Virus record (IMG/VR): IMGVR_UViG_3300027969_000001
Location: 64,001 to 128,000 of that record
Reading direction: 5' to 3' (one strand)
Length of the DNA: 64,000 nt
DNA from: a virus
Both the position numbers and the translations under genes were made by a program. The notes below the pieces were generated by a model. That model searched no databases. It was not told the origin of the DNA and worked only from the letters and a program-made list of their open reading frames with translations. This document shows positions 15,459-54,276 of this stretch, one piece after another; positions within the stretch are counted from its first letter, which is position 1; each line of letters begins with the position of its first letter.

Positions 15459-18400
15459 CTATAATCCCATCGTCTTTAGTTCTTCTACGGTTAATCCAAG
15501 GAACTCTGAAAGCATATCGTAGTGCTCTGCTTTGAGCCTTCTTAGTCCTTCGTTTGCTGGAGCCGTAGCGTAAGCTATTGCTTCCGCTATGTATTCCGCC
15601 CTGTTGGTTGCAGCGTAATCGCTTATTTGCTTAGCTAGTGATGAATCGTATTCTGAAAGCATGTTTACCATTGAGGAAAGTTCGTCTTCAATTTCGGAAC
15701 TACTTCTTCCGGCTTTTAGTTCGTCTTTTGCCCACGAGGTGGCGGCTTTTAGTTCTTTATAGATTCCATCTAAATCTTCTGATTCACGTTTGAATGCAGC
15801 TTTATTTGTCTTTTTAGCCATAGCGTGGATTGCGTGTCCAAGTTCGTGACGTATTACGTACTCTCCGGTAAGGTTTGTCCCCGGAATATAGTCCTTAAGG
15901 ACTTTGTCTGGGAATGCTATGAAGCCATAAGACGGTGTGTATACCCCGCCTCCGGCGTACCAGTTAGTTGGCTCTAGGTCGGATTCAAAAATAAACCCTT
16001 GCTTGAGCCCAAAGTCAGTTAGAAGCATTGGTGGTATGTCAAATCTTCCGAGCATGTTTCTCAATGATGGTGAATTGCTTAGTGTCAATTCAACTTTTTT
16101 CTGAAGTTCTTTTTGTTTATCCCAATTAATTTCTAGTTCTTCAATGAGTTTATTAATTTTTCTAATACTCTTGTTTGAATTCTTTGTGTGCGGAGAACTT
16201 CTCAATATTGATGCAAGCTCTTCAGGGGAAGACGGAACGGCTCTGATTGATAATTCATTTGCAGAATAAGCAACATATTCAGCGTCGCTGCGAGGTTTTG
16301 CTCCTGGACGGCCTTTGCGAAGCCTCCTATTTGACCTGCCGCTACTTAATCGCGTGGATTCAGGAGAGGAATCTCCTGCCTGTTCTCCTCCAGCATTGAG
16401 TATGTAATCTTCATCGAATGCGCCAGGGGTACCGCCGTAGTCTATGTCGTATTCAGAAACCGCAGGTATGCCTAGACGTCTTGATAGCGCTTGAAGTTTT
16501 TCTCCTTCGTCTGGGTTTTCTCCGGTGTAATCATCCCTTACTATGATGTAGGCAATATCGTCTAGCGAAATTCCGCCCTCGCCGGGATGTACCTGTGCTT
16601 CGACTGGATAGTCGAAAGTGTCTTTTTCTCCAGCGTTTCTCAACATCATCATGTTTATATCAGGAGAGTTCATTGCTGACGTTGTTCCCATTAAGCTGAG
16701 GGAGTCTGATTCTGTTACGGTTGTTCTGTCTTCATTTCCTGGCTTGAGGACTAATAGGTAGTTGCCGTACTGCTGACCAGAACCAGCCACTTCTTCAGTT
16801 ACTCCACCATATGCAGCCATTCCATAGATTGGTCTGAATTCTGGAGCCATATCTGGTGGATATCCAAACAGTGTTACTTCCGCTTGCTGTCTAGCTTGAG
16901 GATTGTAATGTCCATTGCTTCTGCCTGTTTCAAACTGACTAAGAAGTTTTTTGTTTTTTATAAGACCGCTTATTGCTTCTTTGTCTACAGCAACGACTAC
17001 GCGATTATAATCCATTGGCCCTGGCTGGAAATAATCTCCACCCATGCCAACGAGTTCTTTTGCGTATTTATCGTATTCGCTTACCAAGTCTTCAACGGTA
17101 CCTCTAACACGCATGTCCGCGGACATTATTATTTTTTTACGTTCATTTTCTAGATACTTAGCGCGTGTTATGTGTATCCCGGCACGAAGAACCAAGCCTT
17201 TGGCAATGGTTTCAGCATCCCATTCCATCATTTGAGGGTCTCTAGATAAAACTATTCCTGTTATTTTGTCAATTGCTGGACCGATGCGTTCACTGAATGG
17301 AGACCTCTCTCTAATACGTGCCCATGGCCCCTTTGAAGTTTCTAGTAGGAATGGGTTAATTTCTTCTCCGTCGAATGCTTTTTTAAAACGAGGGTCATCG
17401 AGTACACCATCAATTAGTTCACCAATAACAGCACCTATTTTAGGGTCTATAGTTTCGTCCAGAAGCCAAGATACTGGTCTTCCTTCTTTTCTTGCGATAG
17501 CAATATCTTCGGTTGGTTCCTTCAGTGACCTTGGATAGGCAGCAACAAGGGCTTTGGCGTGTTCGTTACTTACGTGCTCGGTTAGTCCGGACGAAAGCTT
17601 TTTTCCAGCGTTTTTCCCAACCGATTCTCTTTGTCCGTCAAGAACTTCCGGAGTGGCGGAAGCGGCAAAAGCTCTGCCATCCGGGGATAATGCATCAGAG
17701 TGTTGAAGGTTCTGTTCAGGCCATGTATCCCTGTGAAGGCGCATCATTTCTGATGCTATTCCCGTACGTCTGCGGGTTCTGGCTACGCCAGTCCTTAGGA
17801 TTTCGCTGTGGTCATCCTCGTTCCACTTTATGGTCGTCATCAGTCCTATCGAATTCTTGGAGTCTTCCATTCGCTTTAGGGCATCTAAGACGTTTACTTC
17901 TTCAATAGGAACTGGCCCTTTTTTATCAGTCATCGGATTGAAACCAAGTTTTGTCCAGCTTTCGGAAAGTTTTTGTCTAGCGTCATTTACGCTTCCAGTA
18001 TCATAAGCAGTTATGGTTCCACCAGCATCAAGAACTACCCAGTAGCTAGTTTCGTTTCCATCTTTAGATGTGTGTTCAATATGTCTTGCTGAAACTATGC
18101 CGTAGTAGTTTGCATTCATAACGCTCTCTACTACTTTTTTCTTACCGGACGACATGCGCAGTTCTTGATTTAATTCATCAGGCTGCAGTACTTCTGTTCC
18201 GGAAATGGAGCGAGGTTTTACCAGTGTTGATAAGTCCACTTTCTTGTTGCCCTGTTTATAGTTTTTAATAGCTCTAACAATAAGTGCGGGTGTTATCGCA
18301 TACAGTCTATTCCTGCCTTCATCAAGAGTAACGGAAGAGAATCCAACAAAAGGTCTCTGCATGCCGATTATTTGTTTTTCATAACCAGGTCCAAGCTTGT

Positions 18401-24400: not shown

Positions 24401-27400
24401 TGTGCTCTAGCTTTAGTTCTTCTTTATAGGCTTCATCTTCTTTGAAACGTTTTCTTCTGACATTTAGTATTTCAAGTGCTTTTGCCCAAGTATCAACATC
24501 TGGTCCGAATGCTTCATTTAGTGCTCTAATTTGTGCTTCTTTGTCTATTTGTCCAAAACCATCTTCGGCAGGCTCAAGTCTGTTGTATCGCTTGTATTTT
24601 TCGTAAAGTTCCCAATACTTGAATTTCTCCTGCTCAGGGTTGGCAAATTCGAGTGTTTGGTCGAAACTGTCATCATGATTTCCACCTCTGGCTACGGTAA
24701 AACGAGTTGATTCTCTGCCAGAAGAAAGTCTTGTGCTTCCCTCTTCTTTCTGGGCTGCAACAAAAGACTCTTTGTCTGATTCAAATTTTTTTACATCGGC
24801 GTCAAACTTTTCGCGCTCAAGTCTTAGTTTTTCATCGCGGCGCTTTCTGCTAAGTACAGAAGTGTCCCAGTTGTTTTCTATAGCACCATCAATTATCTTT
24901 TGCATTACCTGACTGGTTGCGAAGGCATCAGCGTCTGCGTTGTGATGTCCGTCGCCAAGTTCCACGCCGAGGTATTCGGTAATGGCGGCAAGGCTGCTGG
25001 ATGGTTTGGTTGTCCCGTCTCTACTACTTACGATATGTGGGCCATCTGGGCTATCTTCGCTCCATACCGGAAGGGTAAGAGAACTTATTTCGCGAGTATC
25101 TAAATAACCGCGTGGTGTCCAATCGATACCGCTTTCACGTAAAGCATCATCAAGAACGTTCTTGTCGAAAGTTGCGTTCTGAACGCCGATGATTGCGTCT
25201 GGGCCAATAAACTCAGCAACCTGTCTATGCGCTTCAGCCATGGGCATTTGCGTGGCAAGCCATTCATTGGTAATCGGATTACCGTCTGCGTCTTTAAGAT
25301 TTGCTAAAGACCATTCTCCTAGTGGTTCTTCTGGGTTCATAAACAGATTTAATCTGCCTATTTCTTCCCCATTTTTCATGCGAACTAGGCCAATTTGTGT
25401 TGGTTTTCCGTTGGTTGTGGCTTTACCAAACTCGTCAAAATTCAGGCCGGTTGTCTCATAGTCGAGAAATACAATTTCGGCATCGTTGTATTTCTTCTTG
25501 AACTCTTCCCATGAATTAGAGTCGCCAAAGTATGAATCTGCTTCACCAAGGAAAGCTCCAAGCGTTGGTTCGCGTGGATATCGTGGAGCCTTGCCGCTAG
25601 ATAGGCGGTCTCCCATCTGTTCCTCAAGCTGGTTAAATGCTTGAGAATCGTCAACTTCAGGAGCCCGTGAGGTTTTAACTGACAGAACCCTGGCAAGTTC
25701 TTCCTTGAGCACATCTCTCTTCCAAACATCTTTATCTTCTTCGCTCTTGCCACTAGGACCACGGTATTCAAATATAACAGGGAGTTTTTCGGACTTGACC
25801 AGAACTCTTAGCCATGCTTCATATGGCGTAGTTGATTTATCTGGGATTATTTCTTCTTTAGACAACCCCTTATCCCCGAAGTTTTTGTCAAACCACACAT
25901 CTGTCATTGCTGGGTTAAACATCTCAACATCGTCAGTTTTAAATACTCCGCCCCTAATGTTAGGAACTACCTCTATGCCATACTCTCGCATTAGTTCATC
26001 ACGTGATTGCGCCATATCAATCAGGAGACTCACATTGCTTTCGTTATTCTCGTTGTAGTCCTTGCTAAGTTCTCCCAACTCTTTTCTAAACTCTTTTGGT
26101 GTAGCAATTATTGCTTGAACTTCTTCAGGCTTGAATCTTCCAAGAACTAATGCTTCTTTGTAACTTGCTGATATGCCATTGTCGGAACTAGCCTCAAATG
26201 CTCCGGATGGTGTTGGGTAAGTGTCGCCAGTCTTGTAGTCATAAAGTATGCCAAGTGGACTAAAACTACTAAGAAACACTCCATCTTCACCCAGTGAACT
26301 GAGTTGAAGAGGCGCATTGTCTTTCATTGACATATCAACTGTGTCTGCATCAAAAACCCTAGTGCGCTCTGCAACTTCTGGTCGTAGCACAAAATGTGAA
26401 TCGCCGTACTTTTGTGTTCTGTTCTGCGAAGCCTCTAGTGCTGCTCCTGCAGGACCTTCGTACATAAGTTTAATGTCGTCTCCGTATATTTTTTTAAACT
26501 TTTCTTCTCGTGCTAATGCTGTTTTTGAAGTAGTAACATAGCCCGATGATGGTCTAAGTTCTCTTACTTCTGGAGGGTCTTCCACCCCTTCTTCAAACGG
26601 TAAACCTAATAGATTGCCTTCAACCTTTCGTCTGGCACTGGTAGTAATAGCATCGCCTATTAGGTTCATAGACTCAATATCAGCTGCTTCTCTTTCTTCT
26701 TTGTCATGTTGAGTGAGTATGGTGCGATTGCCCTTAATAAACGAGGCAATGCTTCTTGTCCTTACGAGCACCCGTGTGTCGATAGATTTACCATACGCTT
26801 CAGACGCCTTCCTCATGTCTGCATTCAACTGTTCTGGGGTGGCTGTTTTTAGATAAGTTTTAAACTCGTCAATTTTTGCAACCATTTCAGTATCGCCCCT
26901 AGCGATATGTATCTGTCTTGATATTTCTAATGCTACGCTCGGAGGAATAGGGTCTCCTTTTGCCCATACTCCAGACTCACGAAGTCTTGCTTGTATGGGG
27001 AAAAACGCTGCCTCGGCATCCCTGCCGGTCATCTCCGAAGTAAAAAACTTTCCTTCTGCTACTACTTCGTTTATGTAATCAATAGCCTCTTGCGGAAGAA
27101 TTGTATCTTTTTTAAAGTAATAGTCAATTTGACGCTTGGCGGACTCTGCTGTTTCTTTTATTCTTGTATCGAGTTTTTCTTTGCTTACTTTTTCTTCAAA
27201 GTTCGTGCCGTAACCGAGTCGTTCTTTCAAGGCTCTTAGTTTCCCAAATATTTCCTGCGTATAAGCTGCGGATATATCGGCATTATTTATTTCGGTACCA
27301 CTAGAAAGTTTTTTGGTTACTTCTGGGTCGTAGCCCCATTCAAGCCAAGAGTCGCCGGCTGTATAAATATCCTTAGCCTTGACTCGCTTCTTTATGATTT

Positions 27401-28211
27401 GATATTCGCCACGCAGTGCTCCATCGCCGTGCATAACTGCGTACTCTCGAATTGGGGTAACCCAGTCACCGGGGGTTATCTTCATGTCGTCTGGTGGAAG
27501 ATTCTTTAGTCTCTCTATTTCGTCTCGAACACCCTGAGACCAATCGCTAGGTTCGATACTTCTGCTGGTTCCTTCTGGAAGTTTGCCACGCGCCATATAT
27601 CTGGCGAGTTGTTTTTCTAGTTTTTCTATCTTTTTACTGTTTGAAAGAGGCACCGCACGATAAATAGTCACCTCGGCATTTGGCTTGCCTTTGTATTGCT
27701 TAATCAGGCTGGCGGCTATTGGGTCAAGCTGGTCATCCCCGACACCATAAAAACGTATTGCATCGGCAGAATAGACGTCCTCTGGATAAACTCCACCATC
27801 TGCCAACATGTCATGTAGGGGAGCGCCTGCGCCTCTTTCTGGAGCTCCATGCTGGCCTCTGTAGTCCTCGTTAGCGCCCGAAGACATTCTTCTGGCTGTC
27901 TCAGTGCCTCTTGTGGGCGAATCTATGCCAATAAAACGTGGATTAGTTGAGCCTTCGTCTACCCAGCCGTCATTGTCGGGGTCAAAGTTGCTGAGGGTGG
28001 GTTTTCTGTAGCCACGAACTCCGCCCGTCGGTGCATCAATGTCCATCCCGCCACGGCGGCGTCTTCCTTCGCCAATGCTTGGCCTATCCACTAGTCGGCT
28101 ACCGACTAATCGGGCGAGTCTATTTCCAAGCGCTTTCTGCTCTACTGAGGCAGGGCGCGCTCTACGGGATTCCTCTATGGGAATAAGGAACTCATTATCA
28201 TCGACAGACAT
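15459..28211 (-). CDS. 4250-aa polyvalent protein/putative polyprotein: ART-like, 2x DUF3626-like, DEDDh exonuclease, 2x zincin, R-S-E ART, GNAT and unknown modules separated by LSSG motifs
   Basis: LDYETTG...NATFD...HNADAD; HEWGH and HELGH each followed by Y...N.AE..AE; YRG...SSWS...EEDETV; V..TRRRTGIAS...SPDG; RPIYG...YG..L.LK...RTT...DS...EAQVH. Confidence 0.9.
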   Translation of the reverse strand: MSVDDNEFLIPIEESRRARPASVEQKALGNRLARLVGSRLVDRPSIGEGRRRRGGMDIDAPTGGVRGYRKPTLSNFDPDNDGWVDEGSTNPRFIGIDSPTRGTETARRMSSGANEDYRGQHGAPERGAGAPLHDMLADGGVYPEDVYSADAIRFYGVGDDQLDPIAASLIKQYKGKPNAEVTIYRAVPLSNSKKIEKLEKQLARYMARGKLPEGTSRSIEPSDWSQGVRDEIERLKNLPPDDMKITPGDWVTPIREYAVMHGDGALRGEYQIIKKRVKAKDIYTAGDSWLEWGYDPEVTKKLSSGTEINNADISAAYTQEIFGKLRALKERLGYGTNFEEKVSKEKLDTRIKETAESAKRQIDYYFKKDTILPQEAIDYINEVVAEGKFFTSEMTGRDAEAAFFPIQARLRESGVWAKGDPIPPSVALEISRQIHIARGDTEMVAKIDEFKTYLKTATPEQLNADMRKASEAYGKSIDTRVLVRTRSIASFIKGNRTILTQHDKEEREAADIESMNLIGDAITTSARRKVEGNLLGLPFEEGVEDPPEVRELRPSSGYVTTSKTALAREEKFKKIYGDDIKLMYEGPAGAALEASQNRTQKYGDSHFVLRPEVAERTRVFDADTVDMSMKDNAPLQLSSLGEDGVFLSSFSPLGILYDYKTGDTYPTPSGAFEASSDNGISASYKEALVLGRFKPEEVQAIIATPKEFRKELGELSKDYNENNESNVSLLIDMAQSRDELMREYGIEVVPNIRGGVFKTDDVEMFNPAMTDVWFDKNFGDKGLSKEEIIPDKSTTPYEAWLRVLVKSEKLPVIFEYRGPSGKSEEDKDVWKRDVLKEELARVLSVKTSRAPEVDDSQAFNQLEEQMGDRLSSGKAPRYPREPTLGAFLGEADSYFGDSNSWEEFKKKYNDAEIVFLDYETTGLNFDEFGKATTNGKPTQIGLVRMKNGEEIGRLNLFMNPEEPLGEWSLANLKDADGNPITNEWLATQMPMAEAHRQVAEFIGPDAIIGVQNATFDKNVLDDALRESGIDWTPRGYLDTREISSLTLPVWSEDSPDGPHIVSSRDGTTKPSSSLAAITEYLGVELGDGHHNADADAFATSQVMQKIIDGAIENNWDTSVLSRKRRDEKLRLEREKFDADVKKFESDKESFVAAQKEEGSTRLSSGRESTRFTVARGGNHDDSFDQTLEFANPEQEKFKYWELYEKYKRYNRLEPAEDGFGQIDKEAQIRALNEAFGPDVDTWAKALEILNVRRKRFKEDEAYKEELKLEHIKRYGYLYSPVYKNGEKTKKAVIEVYDDELAYNSLDALIGKIGKGTEGQTKAVNKVKKVLEGLEESNKLKNRAFKLEHNPDGSGLSYVLMDFDAELSRQKSEEMARLREIYKAEGMSLLDAMYRAIDEIKKDERFSDEKIYSNRNEGESTRLSSGANVVEAFNEPTEVTQQEAADIGLTRESLTGKKVAERIIKKIEETTGKELTKQQKYSIEDAIPGLTKEIAGKTLLDVEVDNAFSETGKQLLESISIDISSDGIPFVSADPIPQLAEQIPDKRDWRTVELPKRDDVISILDEAMKDTVVFNGSVWKDSDGNIIARKIYKNDASTLEFENDEARERFPLLEMLAPKGFVIRSDSIGLPALTQDTLPEPYLEAWKKHSKFVRELTRRAGELMGDEELFLPGSRISHSTDTYLRGYIGGITDPHKFNMGLYGKALQDTHDLFGHLGTGRAFDRHGEWANDLAMMSLADHPDSPLTPQEKMVVKHLHYMMYSAERMLRVGRLDESDLNMNETMGYRNRPRTVFDIEGVSDSETRIYAGDFNSVIKKLDTASTSGRLSSGSKPIYEANEEDIELALAHDILGKSSRPSLASGQERPSIQIRPDSPQRPIIEIGRNERELLREHRAKDYKYGDKSVLGGEIRKTTNTWLRGLSSEQMAKVLVPSNREEHFQMWLDDYAGADVVDPATRLKFQKYYDDFHQKNPWDTPDFSPDNVKAMQELLAQSIEDNPQMKWAFENHGAPSFSFMDPEGIAAYEAIPEVREKFAAIAKQRNDGKPVRARGRMSPNMDTVYLNKEVFLEALDDSIPSVTKSTLRWNGQSPVKGQKSIENSLAGTLLHEWGHWLHFKAIADSEGGPKTTIHTRQRYGSKDKGNTNYARALAVASEFNKFTYDQDRITMFENDVPFSETPDVPRLLTSYGNVNMAETMAEGIVAVLHPDEKIQNEMISPSLKKAVTTLLGGNDTYQPWRDGDRAGRILSSGRSPGVRDERRGRLESALSEIEGLRRSRITETSIPQSRDTQWKKAQIAKFVPIPTTRKPYSPTKPADEKDVLQMFIDDAVSIPGTYDIDSSLAAPKIKREISKKIAESMDFTPQDFVKMFQTSMPGSGVGFADDENFRDVSLILNRTLEGVRDGSKFFYNPKKGSVASGIDFSVEQRVLKIWNESFIPKLESLTAGELFDKSSMWDMYEKTMDDYSIGSIGPTEMRRWSGDHITAIKTQLYYFDMWGNRETRQRREGNPENDYLGIYRLKDGTLISIDSYSLMNSPDDWEQILQKGYGIKKGTDYKDLSELMVAKIDKNTPDDAKDLEVLKELTIQNIKKVIPSPEELLKSRGLVEFDANTPEGQGVLKQALISGLVHTWAISANDSNDVALSMQNVARELFSVDGAVGWDRGNQYRMDRVVASPGPGQIMEDFDGAPVLSEMQRKFVGEFLQTSHEATQQYFEDRGITHLAVYRGITAGENAFGEPIAIGDMDIREVRMRPLSSWSINEATARSFSRRPGNDQSGYVIKAFVPIKDIFSTPFTGFGCLEEDETVILGRPMQAMVFRVDEATRYSADGESLATKLVDVDRDSMAKQIEAKKLSSGETDVLEKPTPYKADTRFNTSYEKEKLDEQSSYMRRFTQALEHYNKTGDWLGGDFDVVVASDKNMNAPTIHSSEAQAKNLLKADIVTRAEDAFTARHESWTRYPGSDKEPERDSFVKNWIKKFEDDINEKSRLLKEEVALLQYKHDSKKIRIEQNVLDLEDITPEEYDDLLKETREILELKQNDRDKYWELFGNGASDGEKFLIHQGSSELDGGVLNPKKTVGSDGFNVASADTKALNNINVADVKARNNQIEKQIEELKKFIESASTDGTIHAGNYNRNSLGLLSSNLSQEFRQNSPDQVIDLAARGWDVAHFISEAHKRIAGLENEQVDVKSVIKALEEADNQFLSALMTGEELAGGYFGRYAHRIIPKHIAENLSRDWDFENRGKDLKVHDSVMMQRWQYAMRGTQWIIGGEQHKHWTNKLGPGYEKQIIGMQRPFVGFSSVTLDEGRNRLYAITPALIVRAIKNYKQGNKKVDLSTLVKPRSISGTEVLQPDELNQELRMSSGKKKVVESVMNANYYGIVSARHIEHTSKDGNETSYWVVLDAGGTITAYDTGSVNDARQKLSESWTKLGFNPMTDKKGPVPIEEVNVLDALKRMEDSKNSIGLMTTIKWNEDDHSEILRTGVARTRRRTGIASEMMRLHRDTWPEQNLQHSDALSPDGRAFAASATPEVLDGQRESVGKNAGKKLSSGLTEHVSNEHAKALVAAYPRSLKEPTEDIAIARKEGRPVSWLLDETIDPKIGAVIGELIDGVLDDPRFKKAFDGEEINPFLLETSKGPWARIRERSPFSERIGPAIDKITGIVLSRDPQMMEWDAETIAKGLVLRAGIHITRAKYLENERKKIIMSADMRVRGTVEDLVSEYDKYAKELVGMGGDYFQPGPMDYNRVVVAVDKEAISGLIKNKKLLSQFETGRSNGHYNPQARQQAEVTLFGYPPDMAPEFRPIYGMAAYGGVTEEVAGSGQQYGNYLLVLKPGNEDRTTVTESDSLSLMGTTSAMNSPDINMMMLRNAGEKDTFDYPVEAQVHPGEGGISLDDIAYIIVRDDYTGENPDEGEKLQALSRRLGIPAVSEYDIDYGGTPGAFDEDYILNAGGEQAGDSSPESTRLSSGRSNRRLRKGRPGAKPRSDAEYVAYSANELSIRAVPSSPEELASILRSSPHTKNSNKSIRKINKLIEELEINWDKQKELQKKVELTLSNSPSLRNMLGRFDIPPMLLTDFGLKQGFIFESDLEPTNWYAGGGVYTPSYGFIAFPDKVLKDYIPGTNLTGEYVIRHELGHAIHAMAKKTNKAAFKRESEDLDGIYKELKAATSWAKDELKAGRSSSEIEDELSSMVNMLSEYDSSLAKQISDYAATNRAEYIAEAIAYATAPANEGLRRLKAEHYDMLSEFLGLTVEELKTMGL

Positions 28212-40125: not shown

Positions 40126-41475
40126 TTAGGCTTCTGGAGCGCCGTCGAATGTTACTTTGACGAATGCTTCTGGGCGCTTGACTGCAAGTGCAAGACGCTG
40201 TTCAGCAAGAACAACGATTGCGTTACGTACGAAGAAGTCGCTATGCTGTTCAGAAATTCTGATGCTAGCTTCTTCACGGTCGTACAATTGAGCACCAGTA
40301 CCGAAGGCACCGACGAGTGCGACTCCTTCTGCGATTGCTGGAGTGTCAACCAATGGCATGCGCCAAACTTTTGGCTCGCCGCCCATTGCAACTGAAACTG
40401 CGATGAGGTATTGGCCATTCTTGTCCTTGGTCAATTCGATATCTTCCCAGTCGTTCGGGTGAAGAACAACGCCGGAAGGCTCGTAGTATGCAAGGTACGA
40501 CAAGGTAGCCGCACGACGGATTGAGTCTGCCTTGGTGTCGGGCACTGGTAATGTTGCACCTTCTGACCATGAGTACTCCTGGATGTTTGGAGTCTGGAGA
40601 ACACCGAGAAGGTTTTCGCCAGTTCCGTCACCGTTAAGGATTTGTGAATCCTCAAGAAGGCGGAGACCGTACATCAACTCGTTATCAATGATTGAACGAA
40701 GCTGTGGCTCGTCTGCAAGAACATTACGGTGCGCTGCTTCCCAGTGTGCGAGTGTACGCACTGGAGCTTGCTCACCAATGAAGTTGAATGACGACTGTGG
40801 CTTTGCTGCGAATGCTGAACCGTTACGCTCAGCTACTGCTGCCGCGTTATTTGTACCGCCACCGGTGAGGGTGGTGAAGCCAAGCTGGCGGAAGTATTCG
40901 ATTACCTGTGCGTTTGTCTTGCGAACTGGGAACAAGTCACGAACACGCTTTGTACGCATTGGAGGGATAACGATTGAGTCACGCTGGATTGAACCGAAAA
41001 CCGCATCTGCACCACGGGCCATTGAGCCTGAAGGCATACCTGAGAAAACGTCTTTAACGTTGTACGAGGTAAGAGATGCTGAAATCTGCCAAGGAGCAGG
41101 CATGTTAGCGCCATTACGGCCACCGTTCAGTGCCTTGAACTCAGCGGAATCGGTGAACATTTGACCAATGCTCTTGATTTCGCGTGAGGAAAGCTGATTG
41201 ATGTCTGCAGACGAAGCTGCATATGCTGAACCAACAGAACCAGATGCTGGCTCTGAAGACCAGCTATCAACGTTGTCCATGGTCTGAAGGTCACCAAGGA
41301 GAGACTTAATCTCTTTGATGTCACGCATGTTCTTGTCGAACGCGCTCTTCTGCTCGGTTGAAACGATAACTGTACCGTCTTCAATTTTGAATGAATCTGC
41401 GATGGCTTTATTATCTGCCATCTTTGTGCGAAGAGCTGATTGTAGCTCTTCTACGCGGGCTTTGTCTTGCGACAT
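40126..41475 (-). CDS. HK97-fold major capsid protein with N-terminal delta/scaffold region
   Basis: VRDLF, VAE...KPQS, LAHW, QILNGDGTG.NL.G, HPNDW..I...KD..G.Y, F.RN....AEQR..L.V.RPEAF. Confidence 0.95.
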   Translation of the reverse strand: MSQDKARVEELQSALRTKMADNKAIADSFKIEDGTVIVSTEQKSAFDKNMRDIKEIKSLLGDLQTMDNVDSWSSEPASGSVGSAYAASSADINQLSSREIKSIGQMFTDSAEFKALNGGRNGANMPAPWQISASLTSYNVKDVFSGMPSGSMARGADAVFGSIQRDSIVIPPMRTKRVRDLFPVRKTNAQVIEYFRQLGFTTLTGGGTNNAAAVAERNGSAFAAKPQSSFNFIGEQAPVRTLAHWEAAHRNVLADEPQLRSIIDNELMYGLRLLEDSQILNGDGTGENLLGVLQTPNIQEYSWSEGATLPVPDTKADSIRRAATLSYLAYYEPSGVVLHPNDWEDIELTKDKNGQYLIAVSVAMGGEPKVWRMPLVDTPAIAEGVALVGAFGTGAQLYDREEASIRISEQHSDFFVRNAIVVLAEQRLALAVKRPEAFVKVTFDGAPEA

Positions 41476-45838: not shown

Positions 45839-46342
45839 TTATTTTTCCTCTATTTGTTTGAGAATTCTCATGGCAGTCCATGCTTTATTCTTGTCGCTTA
45901 ATGTCTTGAATGACAGATTTCCTATATCAGACTGTACCATCTCGCCACAACATGAATTGGATAGCTGCAAATTGCGTAATTGTTTATTAAGGAATGACTC
46001 AACTGCGTCAGATTTTGACTTAATATTTCTGGCGTTTCTGCCAAGTGATGTATATATTTTTATACCCTCAAGCATGGTTTTGTCTATGTCAATTGTTTTT
46101 GTTATAAACGTTTCATACCATTTCCCACTAGTCACAGAATGAGGTGAATCCCATAGGGTTCTATGAAATCTTGAAGACCTCATTTTGGTTAAACCGGAAA
46201 CCTTTGATGTAAATGCAAAAAAATCTACACTTACGGTTCCTCCGTCTTGCTTCTCCACGACTCCATCATCACCGTCTGGGCCGGCATCAAGCACATAGAA
46301 CAATTTGTCCCCATGTATTGAGCCGACCAATACTGCCCTCAT
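45839..46342 (-). CDS. hypothetical protein coupled to the 2645-aa gene
   Basis: ATGA overlap. Confidence 0.7.
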   Translation of the reverse strand: MRAVLVGSIHGDKLFYVLDAGPDGDDGVVEKQDGGTVSVDFFAFTSKVSGLTKMRSSRFHRTLWDSPHSVTSGKWYETFITKTIDIDKTMLEGIKIYTSLGRNARNIKSKSDAVESFLNKQLRNLQLSNSCCGEMVQSDIGNLSFKTLSDKNKAWTAMRILKQIEEK

Positions 46343-49300
46343 CGTGGCCTTCTTAGATTTGTTATAAGTTCTGGTTTCCCACCCTTACGCATTTCTTTTA
46401 AGGCTTTTTCAGCTTGTTCCTGTATGTCAAACATTATTTCGTTACGCAATATGGATTCCATATTTGCTGACGGTGAAACATTTTTTGCAATAATTCGTGG
46501 ATTTTCTATATTGATTCCATCTGGGTGGGCAATTCGTATATTATTAAAACCAAGTTTATTGAATTTATCTTTAACTCCTTGAGCTGCCCGATACTCCCGA
46601 AGCATTTGCATATTTTGTGAGTTCATTTTCCCGGCACCACCAAGAGAGTAAAAGTAATCTATTTCTTCTTGGGAAAATCCGCTTGCTCTTAACTTTTCAG
46701 AAATAGTTTTTGTATTGACCACATCGGATATGTCTACATTGCTTGACATTTCTTTGATTTTTGAATACGGGTAGTTTATTTGCTCGACTTCATCTTTATC
46801 AAAGCCACCAAGAATCTGTGCCTCAAATGGAACACGCTTCCTGTCCGCTGTATCGAGTTTTTTAACTGGAGCCATTTTGCCGTCATCAGATAGTCCTGCA
46901 TTTACATGTGCAAAGTTTCCATCCATGCCGGCCCCCATTAAATGAAGTGTTGCATCCATATTATTGTTTTTGTTGTTCTTACCTTCTGCGTTTATTGTTG
47001 CGTCAAGAATGTCATGCTTATTAATTGAGTTAAGTTTTACTGGTCTATGAGACGTATTCATTGCTTCTCCGCGCCCATAAGACGTACGGTTGGAAACGCC
47101 AGATTTAAGTACGACCTCTATGTCTCCGAGGGAAGTAAGACCGTCCCCGACTATGTCTTTATCGCCTATTTCAAATATGGCGTCATTTGAAACGTTCCCC
47201 TTATTTGCGGCTGTTGCTCTGCGTATTTTTTCATCAACATGGGATTTGTGTACAAGATATCCAGAAACTGGCATTGTCTCGTTGGATACGTCTGGCGGTA
47301 TACCAATTCTTGAATAGTACTCACGAGATAGTTTTTCATTTGCCATTCCAACCGAAGCCCCTGAAGAAAACTTCGCTGCAATAGGACCAGACGTCCAACC
47401 CCGCTGTTTGTTTATTCTTCCAAATTTTCCTGCAGTGCGTTGGCTTGTGGGTGATAGTTTTTCTGCGTCTTTAGAGACCGTGGCAACTCTCATAAACGCA
47501 TCTGATGCATCCTTGTAGGCGTTGGCTATTTTTGTTTTTTCTTCAACAGACATTGTTCCTGGTTGAATGTTCTTAATAGTGGAAAGCATTTCAGATTCTG
47601 TTATTTCTCCACGCCTATGAAGGTCCCTGATTGCTATTTCTGCTAATTCTGGAGCAGAATGACGGGATATATCATTAGCGAGCTGGTCGAGCTCGTAATG
47701 ATAGGTTTGAATAGCGGAACGATGTGATTCCCAGATAGCATCCCTTATGGGCCTGCGGTAAGAGCTATTTATATTTGATTTCTTTAATGCTGAATTGACT
47801 GCACCGTTAACTGCACGTCTTTTACTTCTTCCAGAAAGGTCACCATTTTCGATGCGTACTGGCTGGGGTGAACTTTTCTTAGCATTCTTGTCTTTTTCCC
47901 ATCCCTCTTGGAGCATGGCTTGAACTATGGATTCGCGTTTTTTGCTGGCTTTTTTGACTGCATCCAATTCTCTTGTCAGCTGTTTATCAGCATTAAATGG
48001 TTCCCCATACATGTCTTCATAAGATTTTCCGCCCTCGTAAACTTCATAGGCATCATGTACCGCTTTTGCTTCAGGAGTACCATCAAGTCGACGAGCAACC
48101 TCTGCCCCAAATGTGTCGCCTTCATCCCAACCGGCAATGGGAGCCTTTCCTCTTCCTCTTCCAGTAAGAGCATCAGATAAACCACTTGATAATTTATTTA
48201 TTTTTTCTTCTACGGTTTTGGGAGCGGAACCAAGACGTGCTTCTTCGATAACTGCAGCGTTGTATGCTGTCTCTCTTGCTGCAGACGCCTCGGAAAGTAG
48301 GCGACGGTCATACGCTATGCTCTGCCGTTCAGAAAGTCGCGCGGCATAATCTGGATTTCTTGATAGGCCAACTGAACCAAGTTTGATAAAACTGCCTCCG
48401 GCGTACATTTCATCCACAAGACCTGGAGCGTCTTTTTCTAGAACCTTAGCCTTAGAAACAATATCCTCATCACTTATTGAATCTATAGTTCCAACTTTCC
48501 ATTTATCTTCAACTCCAAGTTTTGCAGCTTTTATGCCCCACTCACCTTGGAATACTTTTCCTAAAGTCAATCCTTCTACAATGTCCGTCTGAACTTCATT
48601 TACATTCAATGGGAGTTGCAGCTCTTTAGGTAGTGAACGATTGGCAACTATTATTGCAGCCCATCTGTGGTGACCATCAAGTATGTATTTGTCTTCTGTT
48701 GCAAGTATTGGGCTCATGAACCATAATTTGCTCATTGCTTCATCGTACGCTTTTTTAAATTCTGGGGTTCCCCTAACAAGACCAGAATCTTCTAATTTTT
48801 TTACTTGTTTAAAAACATCTTTGGTAATATCTTCGTTAGTACTATCAACTTTTGAAGCAACAAGCTGCCTCTGGGAAGGCTGATACGTGGTTGGGTCTGC
48901 TGCTTTTGTTATTACGCCATCCCTGCCATCTTCCGTCTTGATTTGTTCTTTCAGAAATTCTATAAATGGCATTTCAAGGTTTACTTCTACGTCTTGCCAA
49001 TTTGTATTGTCATATAACCATTGTTTTTCGTCTTCAGGTAATGCTAGGAAAGTGGCGCGATGTTCTGCTACTGTTTTTTTAGTGAGTTCGTTTTCGGTAT
49101 TGTGTTTTTCACCAATAGTTTTATAAACAAAAGCAGTTTGTTGTTGGGGAGTCATTGCAGATTTTCCATCAGCAATCAATTTTTGATTTTCTTTTTCTAT
49201 TTCCGCCACATATCTTTGCTCTATTTCGATATTTTGCTTAACGGCATCACCTTTGTTGCCTAATGGGGCCCACTTCCCAGCAGCTTTGCCGTCTTTAAGC

Positions 49301-52300
49301 ATTCTGATAGCCACAGAGTCGTGTCCAGTAGTTCGACCATTCGTCTGCGGCATGTCTTCACGAGCTATACCTATGTGTCCAGAGCAAAGAAGGTTATTCT
49401 CTGGGTTATAAAGCATACATAGGTCTGCCTGATGTTTTTCTTTGTATTGACGCTTTGCCTCGGCAATCATTTCAGGACTTTTTAAATCTTCGTCAGAGTT
49501 AATTTTTTCAAATTCTGATTTAAATTTAAGCCATTCGGGGTGTTCGTTTTCAATTTGATTGGCTGCTTCTTGCTTAACAAGTTCTTCAAATTGTTTTTGA
49601 GCTTGCTCAGTAAGTCTTACATCTTCATGTTTTACCATCACATGATGACCTGCCATCATTAGCGCAAGAGCGTCCTCGACTTTATCTACTTCATATAGGT
49701 GTGAAGATTTTTCACTTACAGACTTTTGACCAGACCTTCTGACGGTTCCACCAAAAAACGATGACAGCTCTTCTTCGGACATGGTTTCAATATCTTTGCC
49801 ATTATCGGCTATTTTTTTAAAAGTTTCCAAAGCAGATTCAGCAATAGCTTTTTCTTTTTTCCCTCTTTCGGCTACCTGTTCAGCGGAGTCGGAGACACCA
49901 GAACTGAGTCTCCCAGCTCTTGCTGCTGGGTCCATACCGGCAAGTCTTTCAACTCTTCTACTACCACTAGAAACCTGAGGACCTACGCTGGATGCCCGCA
50001 TGGTGCCGTCGGCAAGGAACTTTTCTAGGTCAGGTTCACGCATTCTCACCCTGACTCTTCTGTCAAATCCGTTATGCATCTGAAAGGCAGCGGTTTCCAG
50101 GTCTGAAATTATTTGCTCGTGAGACTGGGTCGAAAGTTTTTTAACAACAGCACTATCAAGTGATGAAATAGATAGCGCTTCGTGCTCGCCTGAACCAGAA
50201 CCGGATATCACCTTACGAAGTTCTACCGAACGGTCTTTTATTCTTCCGTTTCTTTGTGTAGTTCTTGCTTCCCGGGTCATTGCTGGTCCGAATACGTCGG
50301 AGTGGCCAGAAGAAAGTTTTCTAGCAACTTCCGACGCAGGACGGCCTCCTCTTTCTGCTGAAGTTTTACTTATAGATTCTAAATATGTTGGAAGCTCTGT
50401 TGGGGCTTCGCCAAATACTCCACCCTTATCGACTACGTCAGAAAGAACTGTCCTGCTTGTTTCTTTAACAGAATCCGCATCGTCAGAGCGTGAGCCAGGA
50501 AGAGGGGAATCGTGTCTGGTTACTGCGTAGTTGTCTGCAAAGGTTTTAAGCTTTCTTGAAGCACCTTTACGCCATGCAGCATCATCAGTGCCCGATGCTA
50601 TCGATGTAGCCATCGAATCAAGGACTTCAACGGTTCCTTTTTGCTCGGCAATTTCTATGCGAATAGTTCCGTCAGCTTCTCTTCCAACAATTCTAATTTT
50701 TCCTGGAGGCATAACGACAGTTTGGTCTCCACTATCTCCAATATTGGGAAATATTCCCCTGTCTTTTGCTTTAGCAACAATAACTACGCGCTGTTTTACT
50801 TTTCCTGTTTCTTCATTTATCTTGGTAGCTTCATCAATAACAGTTTTTTTCTGACCTTTAGAAATCACTCGGCCACTTAATAGTCCGTCGTTTTCTATCT
50901 CCCTACCTATGGAAACTCCCGTGAAAATAGTAGGGTCAAATTCCATTACTGTTTCTATATCTAGCTGCTCTCCAAGTGAGGAAACTTCCATTGCCTCAAG
51001 TGTGGGAACTAGTATGTTTTTGATTTGGTCATCGAAAGAAGCTTCACTACTAGATTTATCATCTATTGGAAGTGCAAGACGTTTTAATCGAGCATTTTTT
51101 CTGTTTGCAGCCCTACCTACGGATATTTGCTTAGATGGCTCTAGCGCACCAGCTAACCCATCAGTATCGAATGTGCCCATCTCTTTAACGGCATCAGATT
51201 GTTCTTTTGTTATTTTTCTACGGAGCCGTGCTCTTTGCTTTTTACCCATATCTCGAGCTTCGGTAGCTGATGCTACTTTCCGTGATGCTCGTGGCTTAGG
51301 CGAAAGTACAGTTTCAACTTTCCCATCAAGCTCCATCAGGATTTGCGCAGTGGTTCTCTTATCGCCGGCGTCTTTTATAGATTTTGCATACTGGTTTCTG
51401 AGAAGGTCAAGTTCCTCTGCTTTATCCATGAGGTCTTTGTCTAGTGCTGCAATATCGACAACAGTTAATTCACCATCTGGAACGGTTTCTACGTCGGCTG
51501 GAACATAGGAAGCAATTGAATTTTCTATATCTTTAATCAGTAATGAATGGTCAGCTATCTTGCGAACTAATTCTTTTTCTGACATCGAAGAAGCAAGTCC
51601 CTTTAGGTCATCAAGAGCTGCGGCCCTAGAAGCGGCCTCTATCTCTTCTGGAGCATAAAGACCGTGAGCATCTCTAACTTCTTTTACTCTCTCTTCAAAT
51701 CTAGCCAACTCAGTTTTTGAACCAACGCCATGTTCTTTTCGCCATATTTTTTTGGCGTCTTCATACATTTTGTCGTAAAATTCAAATTCTTTTTGTGCAG
51801 AATCAAAAGCGGGAGAAGTTATGTCATCTATAGAATCCATTTTTGCTGAAGCATTATCACGCTGTGCTGCAACTAGTGCTGCGTTGTTTATCATGTCTTC
51901 TTCTGGGAGCTCCTTAAAAGCTTCACTGAAAGACTTAAGGGCTGCGCGTCGTTCTTCTGAGGTTCTTTCTCCAACTGAAATCAACTCTTCCGCCATGTCT
52001 TCCGCGGGCATATCCGGAACAGCGTCTCCAGATACGTCTGGAATAAAATCTCCACCAGCATCACCGCTTGGAATAATTGAAGAAACTATGGCTCTATCTT
52101 CAGCTGCCGCCCTCATGGAGACATTGTCCATCCATTCAAGTGCTGCATCAATATCTTCGCCGTAAATTATTCCCTGTTCACGAAGCGCCCAAAGCTCTGC
52201 GCATACTTCTAGGGCCCAGTGCTCTCCGCCTTTTCTGTACACATCCCCTGGGTAGCTACCAGCAAGAGCTGATACAACTTCAATTCTGCTTAATGCTCCA

Positions 52301-54276
52301 TTAAGTGCTTCAATGTTTATATCATCAGCAACATCTATCATGATGTTGGGCCAGTCGTAGCTCGTTATCTGAGTAAAATCAGTAACAGTTCTGTATCTCC
52401 CCGTAAACATTCCCGTTTTTTTGTCATATTCCGGAATGCGGATTGAACCACCAGCCATTAGTTCTGCTTCAATATGGTCCATAAATGCTTGGTACTGAAG
52501 TGTGTGAGAAATTTCGTGGAATATCTGCTGGCGCATGTACGATTTTTCGCCATCAATCAAACCGGCCATACCTCGTGCCGTGTGGTCGGCGTTGACGAGG
52601 AAATCTGCAACTGTTGCCCGTGCTTCAGCGTCAGTAGAGGCTCCAACTGCAGCTACCGAAAGTCTTTGATTTGGGCGCAACGATGGAAGTAGTGACTCTT
52701 GCCCAGACATGCTGTTGTGCATGTTTAGGGAGATTATGTATTTTCCACCTACGTACCTTGTACTCATTTCGTCAGTGCTCGAGTTGTCATACTCCATGAC
52801 GTTTGTGCGGCGCATCGTTGTTGGGGATTTTACATACTGGTCCAGAAGTCCCTCTAGGACTGCGCGCTCAGTGCTGTAGTACCTAGATACGTCTGCTTTT
52901 AAAACAATATCTTGTTCTTCTTTAGTTAAGTCTCTCCATCCTTTTACGGACTGTAGTCTTGCTTGGCAAAACTGCTCAACTTCAACCGGAGTAAGCATTG
53001 CTCCATCGGCTCCACCACGCTGATGAACGAGCCTTATGTCCCAACCAAGAGAGGGGTCAGAAGCCGCTAAAGCGCGAAGCGCATCAAACCCCTGCTTAAG
53101 GTCTTCATTTGTTGCTCGTGCAGTTTCACTTCTATCAACGCCGAGAGAATCAAGTATCGATGAAACACGGGCATCTGTTTGTAACATTCTGTCCTGTGCT
53201 CTTATTGCGCCATTCTTAAACCATCTCTGGTTTTCTGGCATCTCAATACTTCGCCAGTCAGGCGTGTCTACGCGTTCTCCAGTTATGGAGTCGTACCAGA
53301 CAGTTCTTCCGAGTTTTGCCAAATAAGAAGGGCTCGGTATTTCGCCAGGAACCCTGTCTGCCATTGGGTCGTATCTTTGGGAGCTCCAGTTGCCGTTAAA
53401 TACCCCATCAAAGAAACGTTGAGCAGTGGTTCTGGTCCCCTGTAGTTTCCCGTCAGCGGTGGCTGTTTGCGCCATTCTTGCAGCAAATCTACCGAACTTA
53501 GACGGACTAAAGCCAAAACAGTTTGTCCCATACATGTCCGTAAACTGATTTGCGGCCGGCGTCCCTGGAGGGCATCTGAACTTATTTAGCTCGTCTTTTA
53601 TTACTCCAAATGCGGCAGCCGCACGTGAAGCCAGGTTTCCCCCGGGAATACTGGAGCCTATTCTTTCCCCAGGAAGAATCTTTACTTCGGGGTCGAGCTT
53701 GTTTCCTGTTTCGCGACGCTTTTCTCCAACTGTTAATCCAGAAGTTATTGAGAACGGGTTGACTACTCGTCCAGACTCTGGGACAATATCGTCAGTACGT
53801 GGATTGACATCGTATACGGTTAGTTCTACGGATGGTTTTTTTATTATCTGATTTAGTTCGTCTTGAAAAGAACTTGACTTTGGCTCTTTATCAGCAAGCC
53901 AGCCAAAGTTTGGTTTTTCTTCCAAGCCATGAATACTTGAGTATGAAGGAAAAAGTTGAAGGTGTTTTCCTTCTTCCCATGTCTCGTCTGGCATGAATCT
54001 TTCGCCAGTAGGAAGAGATTCCATCCCAGGAATTGACCCGCCGCGCATGTCGCGCTTTTTGCCATCAGTATTATCTTTGTCTACGCCTCCACCAAGAGGA
54101 GTTCCATCAAGTGCTTTGATAGATATATCTGCGTATAGACGCTCAGTAGCAGAACTTATTGCAATTGATTTTCTGAACGAGACAGCAGTCTTGTTTATGT
54201 CTTTACAGCAAGACGTAGGCACTATTAAGCGCGCAGATAATATTACTCGTTCACGGACTATTGAATCACCCGTCAT
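46339..54276 (-). CDS. 2645-aa polyvalent protein: zincin, degenerate VIP2-like ART, ParB/Srx-like and split DUF3626-like domains; SSG motifs
   Basis: FHEISH...EVCAE; PSQ.Q...PIL...YILDGHHRWAA; PVSGY...GDIEVVLK.GV.NRTSY...FEAQILG. Confidence 0.85.
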   Translation of the reverse strand: MTGDSIVRERVILSARLIVPTSCCKDINKTAVSFRKSIAISSATERLYADISIKALDGTPLGGGVDKDNTDGKKRDMRGGSIPGMESLPTGERFMPDETWEEGKHLQLFPSYSSIHGLEEKPNFGWLADKEPKSSSFQDELNQIIKKPSVELTVYDVNPRTDDIVPESGRVVNPFSITSGLTVGEKRRETGNKLDPEVKILPGERIGSSIPGGNLASRAAAAFGVIKDELNKFRCPPGTPAANQFTDMYGTNCFGFSPSKFGRFAARMAQTATADGKLQGTRTTAQRFFDGVFNGNWSSQRYDPMADRVPGEIPSPSYLAKLGRTVWYDSITGERVDTPDWRSIEMPENQRWFKNGAIRAQDRMLQTDARVSSILDSLGVDRSETARATNEDLKQGFDALRALAASDPSLGWDIRLVHQRGGADGAMLTPVEVEQFCQARLQSVKGWRDLTKEEQDIVLKADVSRYYSTERAVLEGLLDQYVKSPTTMRRTNVMEYDNSSTDEMSTRYVGGKYIISLNMHNSMSGQESLLPSLRPNQRLSVAAVGASTDAEARATVADFLVNADHTARGMAGLIDGEKSYMRQQIFHEISHTLQYQAFMDHIEAELMAGGSIRIPEYDKKTGMFTGRYRTVTDFTQITSYDWPNIMIDVADDINIEALNGALSRIEVVSALAGSYPGDVYRKGGEHWALEVCAELWALREQGIIYGEDIDAALEWMDNVSMRAAAEDRAIVSSIIPSGDAGGDFIPDVSGDAVPDMPAEDMAEELISVGERTSEERRAALKSFSEAFKELPEEDMINNAALVAAQRDNASAKMDSIDDITSPAFDSAQKEFEFYDKMYEDAKKIWRKEHGVGSKTELARFEERVKEVRDAHGLYAPEEIEAASRAAALDDLKGLASSMSEKELVRKIADHSLLIKDIENSIASYVPADVETVPDGELTVVDIAALDKDLMDKAEELDLLRNQYAKSIKDAGDKRTTAQILMELDGKVETVLSPKPRASRKVASATEARDMGKKQRARLRRKITKEQSDAVKEMGTFDTDGLAGALEPSKQISVGRAANRKNARLKRLALPIDDKSSSEASFDDQIKNILVPTLEAMEVSSLGEQLDIETVMEFDPTIFTGVSIGREIENDGLLSGRVISKGQKKTVIDEATKINEETGKVKQRVVIVAKAKDRGIFPNIGDSGDQTVVMPPGKIRIVGREADGTIRIEIAEQKGTVEVLDSMATSIASGTDDAAWRKGASRKLKTFADNYAVTRHDSPLPGSRSDDADSVKETSRTVLSDVVDKGGVFGEAPTELPTYLESISKTSAERGGRPASEVARKLSSGHSDVFGPAMTREARTTQRNGRIKDRSVELRKVISGSGSGEHEALSISSLDSAVVKKLSTQSHEQIISDLETAAFQMHNGFDRRVRVRMREPDLEKFLADGTMRASSVGPQVSSGSRRVERLAGMDPAARAGRLSSGVSDSAEQVAERGKKEKAIAESALETFKKIADNGKDIETMSEEELSSFFGGTVRRSGQKSVSEKSSHLYEVDKVEDALALMMAGHHVMVKHEDVRLTEQAQKQFEELVKQEAANQIENEHPEWLKFKSEFEKINSDEDLKSPEMIAEAKRQYKEKHQADLCMLYNPENNLLCSGHIGIAREDMPQTNGRTTGHDSVAIRMLKDGKAAGKWAPLGNKGDAVKQNIEIEQRYVAEIEKENQKLIADGKSAMTPQQQTAFVYKTIGEKHNTENELTKKTVAEHRATFLALPEDEKQWLYDNTNWQDVEVNLEMPFIEFLKEQIKTEDGRDGVITKAADPTTYQPSQRQLVASKVDSTNEDITKDVFKQVKKLEDSGLVRGTPEFKKAYDEAMSKLWFMSPILATEDKYILDGHHRWAAIIVANRSLPKELQLPLNVNEVQTDIVEGLTLGKVFQGEWGIKAAKLGVEDKWKVGTIDSISDEDIVSKAKVLEKDAPGLVDEMYAGGSFIKLGSVGLSRNPDYAARLSERQSIAYDRRLLSEASAARETAYNAAVIEEARLGSAPKTVEEKINKLSSGLSDALTGRGRGKAPIAGWDEGDTFGAEVARRLDGTPEAKAVHDAYEVYEGGKSYEDMYGEPFNADKQLTRELDAVKKASKKRESIVQAMLQEGWEKDKNAKKSSPQPVRIENGDLSGRSKRRAVNGAVNSALKKSNINSSYRRPIRDAIWESHRSAIQTYHYELDQLANDISRHSAPELAEIAIRDLHRRGEITESEMLSTIKNIQPGTMSVEEKTKIANAYKDASDAFMRVATVSKDAEKLSPTSQRTAGKFGRINKQRGWTSGPIAAKFSSGASVGMANEKLSREYYSRIGIPPDVSNETMPVSGYLVHKSHVDEKIRRATAANKGNVSNDAIFEIGDKDIVGDGLTSLGDIEVVLKSGVSNRTSYGRGEAMNTSHRPVKLNSINKHDILDATINAEGKNNKNNNMDATLHLMGAGMDGNFAHVNAGLSDDGKMAPVKKLDTADRKRVPFEAQILGGFDKDEVEQINYPYSKIKEMSSNVDISDVVNTKTISEKLRASGFSQEEIDYFYSLGGAGKMNSQNMQMLREYRAAQGVKDKFNKLGFNNIRIAHPDGINIENPRIIAKNVSPSANMESILRNEIMFDIQEQAEKALKEMRKGGKPELITNLRRPR

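Follow-up and report, generated by a model that had tools for sequence, protein, structure and literature searches.

This study concerns a very large gene, P0001, in a stretch of 64,000 nucleotides (nt) of viral DNA, hereafter called the window, which comprises bases 64001-128000 of IMG/VR virus record IMGVR_UViG_3300027969_000001, a single 158.7-kb contig of a tailed phage. Residues 1373-1435 and 2307-2645 of the P0001 protein are the two halves of one domain, referred to here as the N-piece and the C-part. They lie 868 residues apart (positions 1439-2306 of the amino acid [aa] sequence), and P0001 does not hold the domain as one continuous unit. The sequence comparisons and structure predictions presented below are best explained if the discontinuous domain of P0001 is an ADP-ribosyltransferase (ART) of the SopF/DUF3626 kind, with predicted enzymatic activity. 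Our preferred reading, to which we assign a probability of roughly 0.65, is that the two pieces of the ART re-associate, most likely after processing of the giant protein, and that the enzyme is virion cargo by analogy with T4 Alt.

The division of the domain was proposed in a preliminary description of this DNA, made from the sequence alone, in which a DUF3626-like domain appeared to be interrupted by an insert bounded by SSG motifs. The motifs quoted in that description were all found in P0001 where it had placed them, and the split of the domain by a nested, multi-module insert is real. The additional claim that joining of the two SSG sites restores the spacing of an intact copy was correct approximately but not exactly, because after removal of aa 1439-2306 the spacing at the junction exceeds the modal spacing of contiguous forms by about 7 residues. 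The layout of the split domain is as follows, in window coordinates:

46339-54276, minus strand: P0001, the giant gene that bears the split domain, a 2645-aa open reading frame with an architecture common to 26 cluster representatives
49972..50160, minus strand: ART N-piece, aa 1373-1435 (helix, strand, helix), found by hhalign to the contiguous profile and by phmmer in 75 C-part relatives
50041..50070, minus strand: strand beta1, GFDRRVRVRM, aa 1403-1412, with the candidate first triad residue R1409 at nt 50050-52
49963..49971, minus strand: QV-SSG right after the N-piece, aa 1436-1438, found by motif search
49897..49962, minus strand: conserved peptide SRRVERLAGMDPAARAGR and then L-SSG, aa 1439-1460, with a RRxERL...RLSSG pattern in most split relatives
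48190..49896, minus strand: inserted module 1, aa 1461-2029, with a ParB/Srx-fold core at about aa 1789-1903 (nt 48568-48912)
48181..48189, minus strand: KL-SSG between the two inserted modules, aa 2030-2032, found by motif search
47368..48180, minus strand: inserted module 2, aa 2033-2303, with no family match and absent from the relative L001
47359..47367, minus strand: KF-SSG right before the C-part, aa 2304-2306, in the same register in 9 of 26 relatives
46342..47358, minus strand: ART C-part and helical tail, aa 2307-2645, with 143 relatives at E ≤ 1e-3
47257-59, minus strand: Y2340 in PVSGY, on the C-part
46822-24, minus strand: E2485 in FEAQILGG, on the C-part

The helical tail of P0001 (46342-46700, minus strand) has a conserved LR..GFS.EEI motif and gave weak, probably spurious matches to IcmE/DotG repeats and to Nop5.

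Homology of both pieces to one contiguous domain

To collect relatives, the C-part by itself (P0001:2290-2645) was used as the query of an exhaustive HMMER search with a cutoff of E ≤ 1e-3. The search returned 143 cluster representatives, 48 of them at E ≤ 1e-30. The N-piece (P0001:1368-1447) was searched with phmmer against only those 143 proteins and was matched in 75 at a domain E ≤ 0.01, with the split forms at E values of 1e-7 to 5e-15. The 75 proteins fell into two distance classes: the N-piece ended about 10 residues before the C-part in 49, and was located 429-1378 aa upstream of it in 26. Use of an N-piece profile raised the contiguous class to at least 84 proteins, and there were no intermediate gaps between about 10 and 429 aa. 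Homologs that lack the insert, which the preliminary description had suggested as a check on its proposal, are therefore plentiful.

The alignment of the N-piece with the start of the domain was examined with a profile (A1) composed of contiguous homologs and C-parts, with no split N-pieces included. Hhalign of this profile against P0001:1325-1460 gave a probability of 97.5 and an E value of 8.8e-12 over profile columns 3-87, which are the N-terminus of the domain; thus, the claim that the upstream fragment corresponds to the domain N-terminus stands. By sequence comparison, then, both P0001 pieces are shown to be homologous to one contiguous domain.

A second giant protein encoded in the window, the 4250-aa P0002, had been described as having two contiguous copies of the domain. 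Both are present and both are homologous:

26103..26870, minus strand: contiguous copy 1 in P0002, aa 448-703, hhalign E 3.4e-15, N-strand included
16512..17096, minus strand: contiguous copy 2 in P0002, aa ~3706-3900, hhalign E 4.7e-10 (aa 3706-3853), N-strand included

The N-piece profile also matched P0002 at aa 449-487, and copy 2 reached the Pfam family DUF3626 (PF12294) at aa 3745-3840 with an E value of 3.3e-9 and 36.6 bits (cutoff 27). Profiles were needed for these comparisons because BLASTP between the copies was weak or silent: with the C-part it gave only E values of 0.002-0.004 against the P0002 copies, and with the N-module it found nothing in either copy. Four of the relatives (P0058, P0067, P0080, and P0144) resemble P0002 in having two N-piece matches or two ART copies per protein.

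Relationship to SopF

The fold of the family was assigned from an AlphaFold2 model made on a contiguous homolog, P0061, with a 97-row alignment, and not on the window protein itself. The model had a mean predicted local distance difference test score (pLDDT) of 89.7 and a predicted template modeling score (pTM) of 0.87. At E ≤ 1e-3 Foldseek matched it only to the two SopF structures. VIA-align gave a match to SopF (7dn9_A) with a Z score of 11.1, a root-mean-square deviation (rmsd) of 3.9, and 207 aligned residues, covering model residues 7-324; the next structural matches were DarT (Z about 7) and OspC3/CopC (about 6), followed by Rhs ART toxins, pertussis toxin, CteC, and cholera toxin. All of these matches are ADP-ribosyltransferases, and on this model the family is shown to have an ART fold. 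The equivalent of the N-piece in the P0061 model (helix 7-23, strand 25-33, and helix 35-44) is inside the SopF match.

In ART folds the first strand bears a His or Arg residue of the nicotinamide adenine dinucleotide (NAD) site. R1409, which is on the N-piece strand, was conserved in 26 of 26 split proteins, and among the 31 proteins of the split plus C-only clade Y2340 was conserved in 30 and E2485 in 25. The three residues occupy conserved columns on elements that would correspond to the triad strands of SopF (strand 1, strand 2, and the glutamate strand), and are candidates for the triad. The models thus assign the first core strand and the predicted first triad residue to the N-piece, and Y2340 and E2485 to the C-part. 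Because the C-part lacks that strand and that residue, we conclude that it is not a complete domain by itself, a possibility which the preliminary description had raised against its own proposal.

SopF was reported to carry DUF3626 (PMC6682159); it is an ART whose I-Y-E triad resembles the H-Y-E triad of diphtheria-toxin-type enzymes (PMC10333799). This characterized DUF3626 member (PDB 7DN8/7DN9) shares the ART fold with the phage domain, in which R/H-Y-E is the candidate counterpart of its three-residue triad of the diphtheria-toxin type. SopF differs in being one continuous chain, whereas the phage domain is a module of a putative virion protein and is cut in two by 429-1378 aa. SopF is, moreover, a type III effector that acts on the eukaryotic V-ATPase and is activated by ARF GTPases. 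Sequence identity between SopF and the phage family is about 10%, and the Pfam model misses the split copy; the link of P0001 to SopF/DUF3626 is structural, together with the hhalign match to the DUF3626-positive copy in P0002.

The split clade, its separate-gene forms, and the SSG motifs

In a maximum-likelihood tree of 103 C-parts, the split forms, truncated database entries, and C-part-only proteins formed one clade of 37, with a Shimodaira-Hasegawa-like approximate likelihood ratio test (SH-aLRT) value of 96. The clade contained no contiguous member, was nested among contiguous forms, and had five contiguous forms as its sister. One change of state suffices for the distribution of split forms on the tree, and the sequences thereby show a single origin of the split. 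Within the clade the C-parts have diverged to 35-58% identity. The N-piece was retained in every one of the 26 split representatives, while the linkers beside it diverged.

In some members of the clade the C-part is encoded by a gene of its own. Five representatives of 321-331 aa have a Met start exactly at the equivalent of the start of the C-part in the window; they form one subclade within the split clade, and their genes are in the same synteny as those of the window. Three loci were long enough upstream to be examined. In L003, the C-part gene begins 4 nt after a double stop, and the giant upstream of it has the N-piece (E 1.6e-22). In L006, a 66-codon gene is located between the C-part gene and a giant that has the N-piece (E 5.1e-23), and the upstream giant in L008/L009 has it as well (E 1.8e-17). 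In these loci the stand-alone C-part gene either overlaps the gene before it or starts 2-4 nt beyond the stop codon of that gene, and the N-piece is 390-800 aa before the stop of the giant. Wherever the contig was long enough, therefore, the stand-alone C-part gene was always downstream of a giant holding the N-piece. Because the pieces are on different polypeptides in these three relatives, a covalent link between them is not needed. These gene arrangements, in which both halves are retained, provide the strongest argument that the halves would cooperate without a covalent link, and they argue against splicing.

Whether the two pieces fit one another was assessed by a two-chain prediction with P0001:1373-1438 and P0001:2305-2645, each with its own alignment. 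The interaction prediction score from aligned errors (ipSAE) was 0.85, 0.85, and 0.80, whereas none of three controls scored above 0.00. In the calibration of the tool, which holds only roughly here given the use of own alignments, 58 of 80 solved complexes and 2 of 110 mismatched pairs attained this mark. The runs agreed in at least 80% of the contacts, with a partner pLDDT of at least 79. In the predicted complex GFDRRVRVRM was placed between PVSGYLVH (2336-2343) and GDIEVVLK (2384-2391), near FEAQILGG, so that the N-strand is modeled as a central strand of the sheet, at the active site. The prediction shows that the modeled pieces are still mutually compatible, and suggests that they may physically re-associate.

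The inserts that separate the pieces vary widely in length and content among the split relatives. A module with the motif DGHHR, which is at aa 1867-1871 of P0001, was present in 19 of the 26 inserts, and the motif was invariant among those 19; the remaining inserts had other content, and that of one relative holds an RNase_T exonuclease. An AlphaFold2 model of P0001 aa 1590-2029 had a pLDDT of 83.9. The 21 best structural matches for module 1 were all of the ParB/Srx fold (ParB, Noc, KorB, sulfiredoxin, SerK, and SbnI; Z 5.2-7.4), after which Z fell to 3.4; the best, ParB 7bnr_A, had a Z of 7.4, an rmsd of 2.2, and 74 aligned residues, and with Z < 8 is a middling match. Pfam ParBc_2 was detected in 3 of the 26 homologous inserts and was also the Atlas lead for module 1. 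Pfam gave no match for the window's own ParB-like module, and the search of the PDB with the insert profile (A4) found nothing. The presence of a ParB-like module in the insert, as had been proposed, is supported by the invariant DGHHR in the 19 homologs and by the ParB/Srx-fold model. Module 2 (aa 2033-2303) matched no recognised family.

The SSG-flanked peptide RRVERLAGMDP...RLSSG was considered as a duplicate of the first helix plus RPxSGY of the C-part, which would have indicated that two tandem copies had decayed in a complementary way, and this was not supported. The hhalign alignment did extend over the peptide after QV-SSG; a profile of the segment exceeded the 99th shuffle percentile only in the window protein, and was not significant in most relatives. 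Separately, a SSRRLDRR peptide like RRxERL..M.P..R..RLSSG is encoded by a 66-codon gene of its own before the C-part gene (L006:7204-7404 and L007:1619-1819).

The distribution of SSG was determined at both junctions. The motif was found no more than 60 aa after the N-piece in 21 of 26 split proteins, compared to about 11% expected, and no more than 20 aa after it in 10 of 26. Before the C-part it was found within 70 aa in 15 of 26, nine of which (9/26) had the exact register of the window, 27 aa before the GIP motif. The contiguous sister clade had almost no SSG motifs. In all stop-to-stop frames of the 158.7-kb genome, [RK][LMF]SSG occurred 19 times, and all 19 were in four very large proteins: the three giants of the window and a 1643-aa protein outside it. 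The codons for SSG differ between sites and a search for direct repeats bounding the insert DNA found none; the conservation of SSG is therefore at the protein level. The idea that SSG sites are insertion points for modules is thus partly supported: SSG is enriched at the junctions, and several members lack it there.

The minus strand of the window has three very large genes. The two besides P0001 are as follows:

15459-28211, minus strand: P0002 giant, 4250 aa
56118-63998, minus strand: P0003 giant, which crosses the window edge and continues in L011:1-3228

The tailed phage also encodes a class II ribonucleotide reductase, a primase-helicase, and a capsid protein of the HK97 type (PF05065, E 8e-41). 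No match to it was found among 50,697 phage records by megablast or tblastn. The gene order is portal (PF04860), P0003, P0001, and capsid protein, so that P0003 directly follows the portal gene and P0001 is in the head-morphogenesis block. P0003 has at its N-terminus a domain of the Caudovirus prohead serine protease family (Peptidase_S78), which scored 37 bits with a cutoff of 21; ArdC-N, MPTase-PolyVal, and two UvrD-type helicases come after it. P0001 has the ParB/Srx and ART modules, and P0002 has RNase_T plus the two ART copies; the RNase_T-type exonuclease module is at P0002 aa 914-1102 (E 1.3e-9). All three are giants that combine unrelated effector domains, and judged by their domain content they belong to the polyvalent proteins as defined by Iyer et al. 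2017 (PMC5512222), a class in which MPTase or ArdC-N is often present and for which peptidase processing has been proposed. The pattern of SSG occurrence, given the protease-fused neighboring giant, fits the SSG sites as candidate processing sites.

The capsid protein (40126-41475, minus strand) has, at about aa 75-100 in a delta-like N-terminal region, the sequences EPASGSVG and NQLSSR, which are loosely like xSSG and could bear on which protease reads xSSG.

Proposed mechanism, alternatives, and significance

The events that would lead to a functional split ART can be outlined as follows. In an ancestor of the phage lineage, effector modules would have been inserted once, in the surface loop that connects the first strand-helix unit to the remainder of the fold; the earliest module would have been ParB-like, and the content would have varied later. 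The giant would be cut at the xSSG punctuation sites inside the capsid, and the two pieces would then dock non-covalently, as separate polypeptides, to form an NAD-using enzyme with a putative activity and target. Docking could also occur around the insert in uncleaved protein, but is more likely between separate polypeptides. The enzyme, presumably packaged in the virion, would be ejected into the host with the DNA, like T4 Alt. Of the three mechanisms offered in the preliminary description (reassembly of fragments after cleavage, a splicing-like rejoining, and folding around the insert), fragment reassembly is the best supported, by the separate genes and by a two-chain model that passes its controls.

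Several results weigh against this interpretation. Six of the 31 clade members have another residue in place of E2485, possibly through misalignment. Pfam DUF3626 did not match P0001, whole or in parts, at E ≤ 10, and a search of the PDB with family profile A1 did not reach SopF, giving just spurious helical matches in the tail. Several split relatives have SSG at only one junction or at neither. Finally, the complex score may reflect only the rebuilding, by the model, of a single-chain fold that can be deduced from contiguous homologs in the alignments.

The alternative that survives best, although we regard it as unlikely, is that module shuffling broke the ART and left a decayed remnant, in which the C-part is inactive or has been repurposed without beta1, and the N-piece is kept as a linker or packaging signal. 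Polyvalent proteins shuffle their modules freely, and the variability of the inserts, the absence of a Pfam match on P0001, and the differences at the candidate glutamate would all suit such decay. A remnant would not, however, account readily for an N-piece that every one of the 26 split representatives keeps (E values of 1e-7 to 5e-15) beside linkers that diverge, and that persists where the C-part is a separate gene. The conservation of R1409 and Y2340 also argues against it, as does the modeled position of the strand at the active site.

Less probable still is a giant that stays uncut at these sites, with the ART folding round its 870-aa insert and SSG serving as a flexible linker. The two-gene relatives are the main difficulty, since the pieces in L003, L006, and L008 are on different chains and folding in cis, although it may occur in P0001 itself, cannot hold for them. 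The confinement of [RK][LMF]SSG to four very large proteins, one of which starts with a prohead protease, is a further point against simple linkers, even though nested domain insertions are common in proteins and several split relatives do without SSG at a junction.

We consider it very improbable that the C-part is complete by itself and that the likeness of the N-piece arose by chance. The Met-started proteins of 321-331 aa do cover the C-part alone, and BLASTP of the N-module against the P0002 copies was empty; but the profile and phmmer statistics, the sharp separation of gaps of about 10 aa from those of at least 429 aa, the constant position of testable stand-alone genes after an N-piece giant, and the placement of the N-piece inside the SopF match all oppose this view. 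Covalent rejoining, in which splicing ligates the halves or RNA, DNA, or translation-level skipping bypasses the insert, has next to no likelihood, and the splicing-like step of the preliminary description is not supported: the same SSG tripeptide is at both junctions, but no HINT or intein family matched P0001 aa 1440-2310 at E ≤ 10, the insert ends in ...AAKFSSG followed by Ala and has no His-Asn at its end, it holds conserved in-frame enzyme modules with the invariant DGHHR, it is bounded by no DNA repeats and by SSG codons that differ, and pieces in separate genes cannot splice in cis and need no ligation.

An extension of the preferred reading, which we put forward tentatively and consider doubtful, is that the split is a safety and delivery device. 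The ART would be unable to form as long as the uncleaved giant held its first strand, and would become an active two-chain enzyme only once the head protease had cut at xSSG in the capsid; where the pieces are in two genes, the free C-part would be recruited into the virion by docking on the N-piece of the packaged giant. If so, an injected toxin-type enzyme would be assembled by fragment complementation under the control of proteolysis.

T4 Alt is an ADP-ribosyltransferase that is packaged in the head and injected with the DNA (PMC5512222). The likeness is that of a phage ART carried in the capsid to act on host molecules during infection, as would be the case for P0001, whose gene is in the head-morphogenesis block next to a protease-fused giant. 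Alt differs in belonging to another ART family and in having its domain in one uninterrupted piece. With polyvalent proteins the phage giants share their size and multi-module effector content, including MPTase-PolyVal and ArdC-N in the neighboring giant and the ParB-like and exonuclease modules. The text of Iyer et al. 2017 (PMC5512222) has neither "split" nor "inserted," and no ART broken by modules is found there. ART-PolyVal (PF18760) differs as well, having no match to P0001, P0002, or P0003 at E ≤ 0.01.

Naturally split enzymes work by fragment complementation, and in these as in nested domains one fold is assembled from distant segments or from separate chains. The phage case differs in that the break interrupts the catalytic core itself, in an enzyme of the toxin type; it has a recurring candidate processing motif at its flanks and holds interchangeable effector modules, with fused and two-gene forms in one clade. 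The fold and the class of protein were already known. What is new is a catalytic core cut by whole interchangeable effector modules, conserved across a clade, flanked by a candidate processing motif, and resolved into two genes in some members.

These results give the DUF3626-like modules of marine-type phage giants a concrete reading as SopF-like ARTs. They also provide a natural case of a divided ART catalytic core, with the first strand of the NAD site on one piece and the rest on the other. If the pieces do re-associate, enzymes of this kind will escape annotation pipelines designed for continuous domains, and the phage proteins would offer a natural model of fragment complementation and, possibly, of the activation of virion cargo under protease control. 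The two ART pieces would in addition serve as a built-in reporter for whether the xSSG sites are cut.

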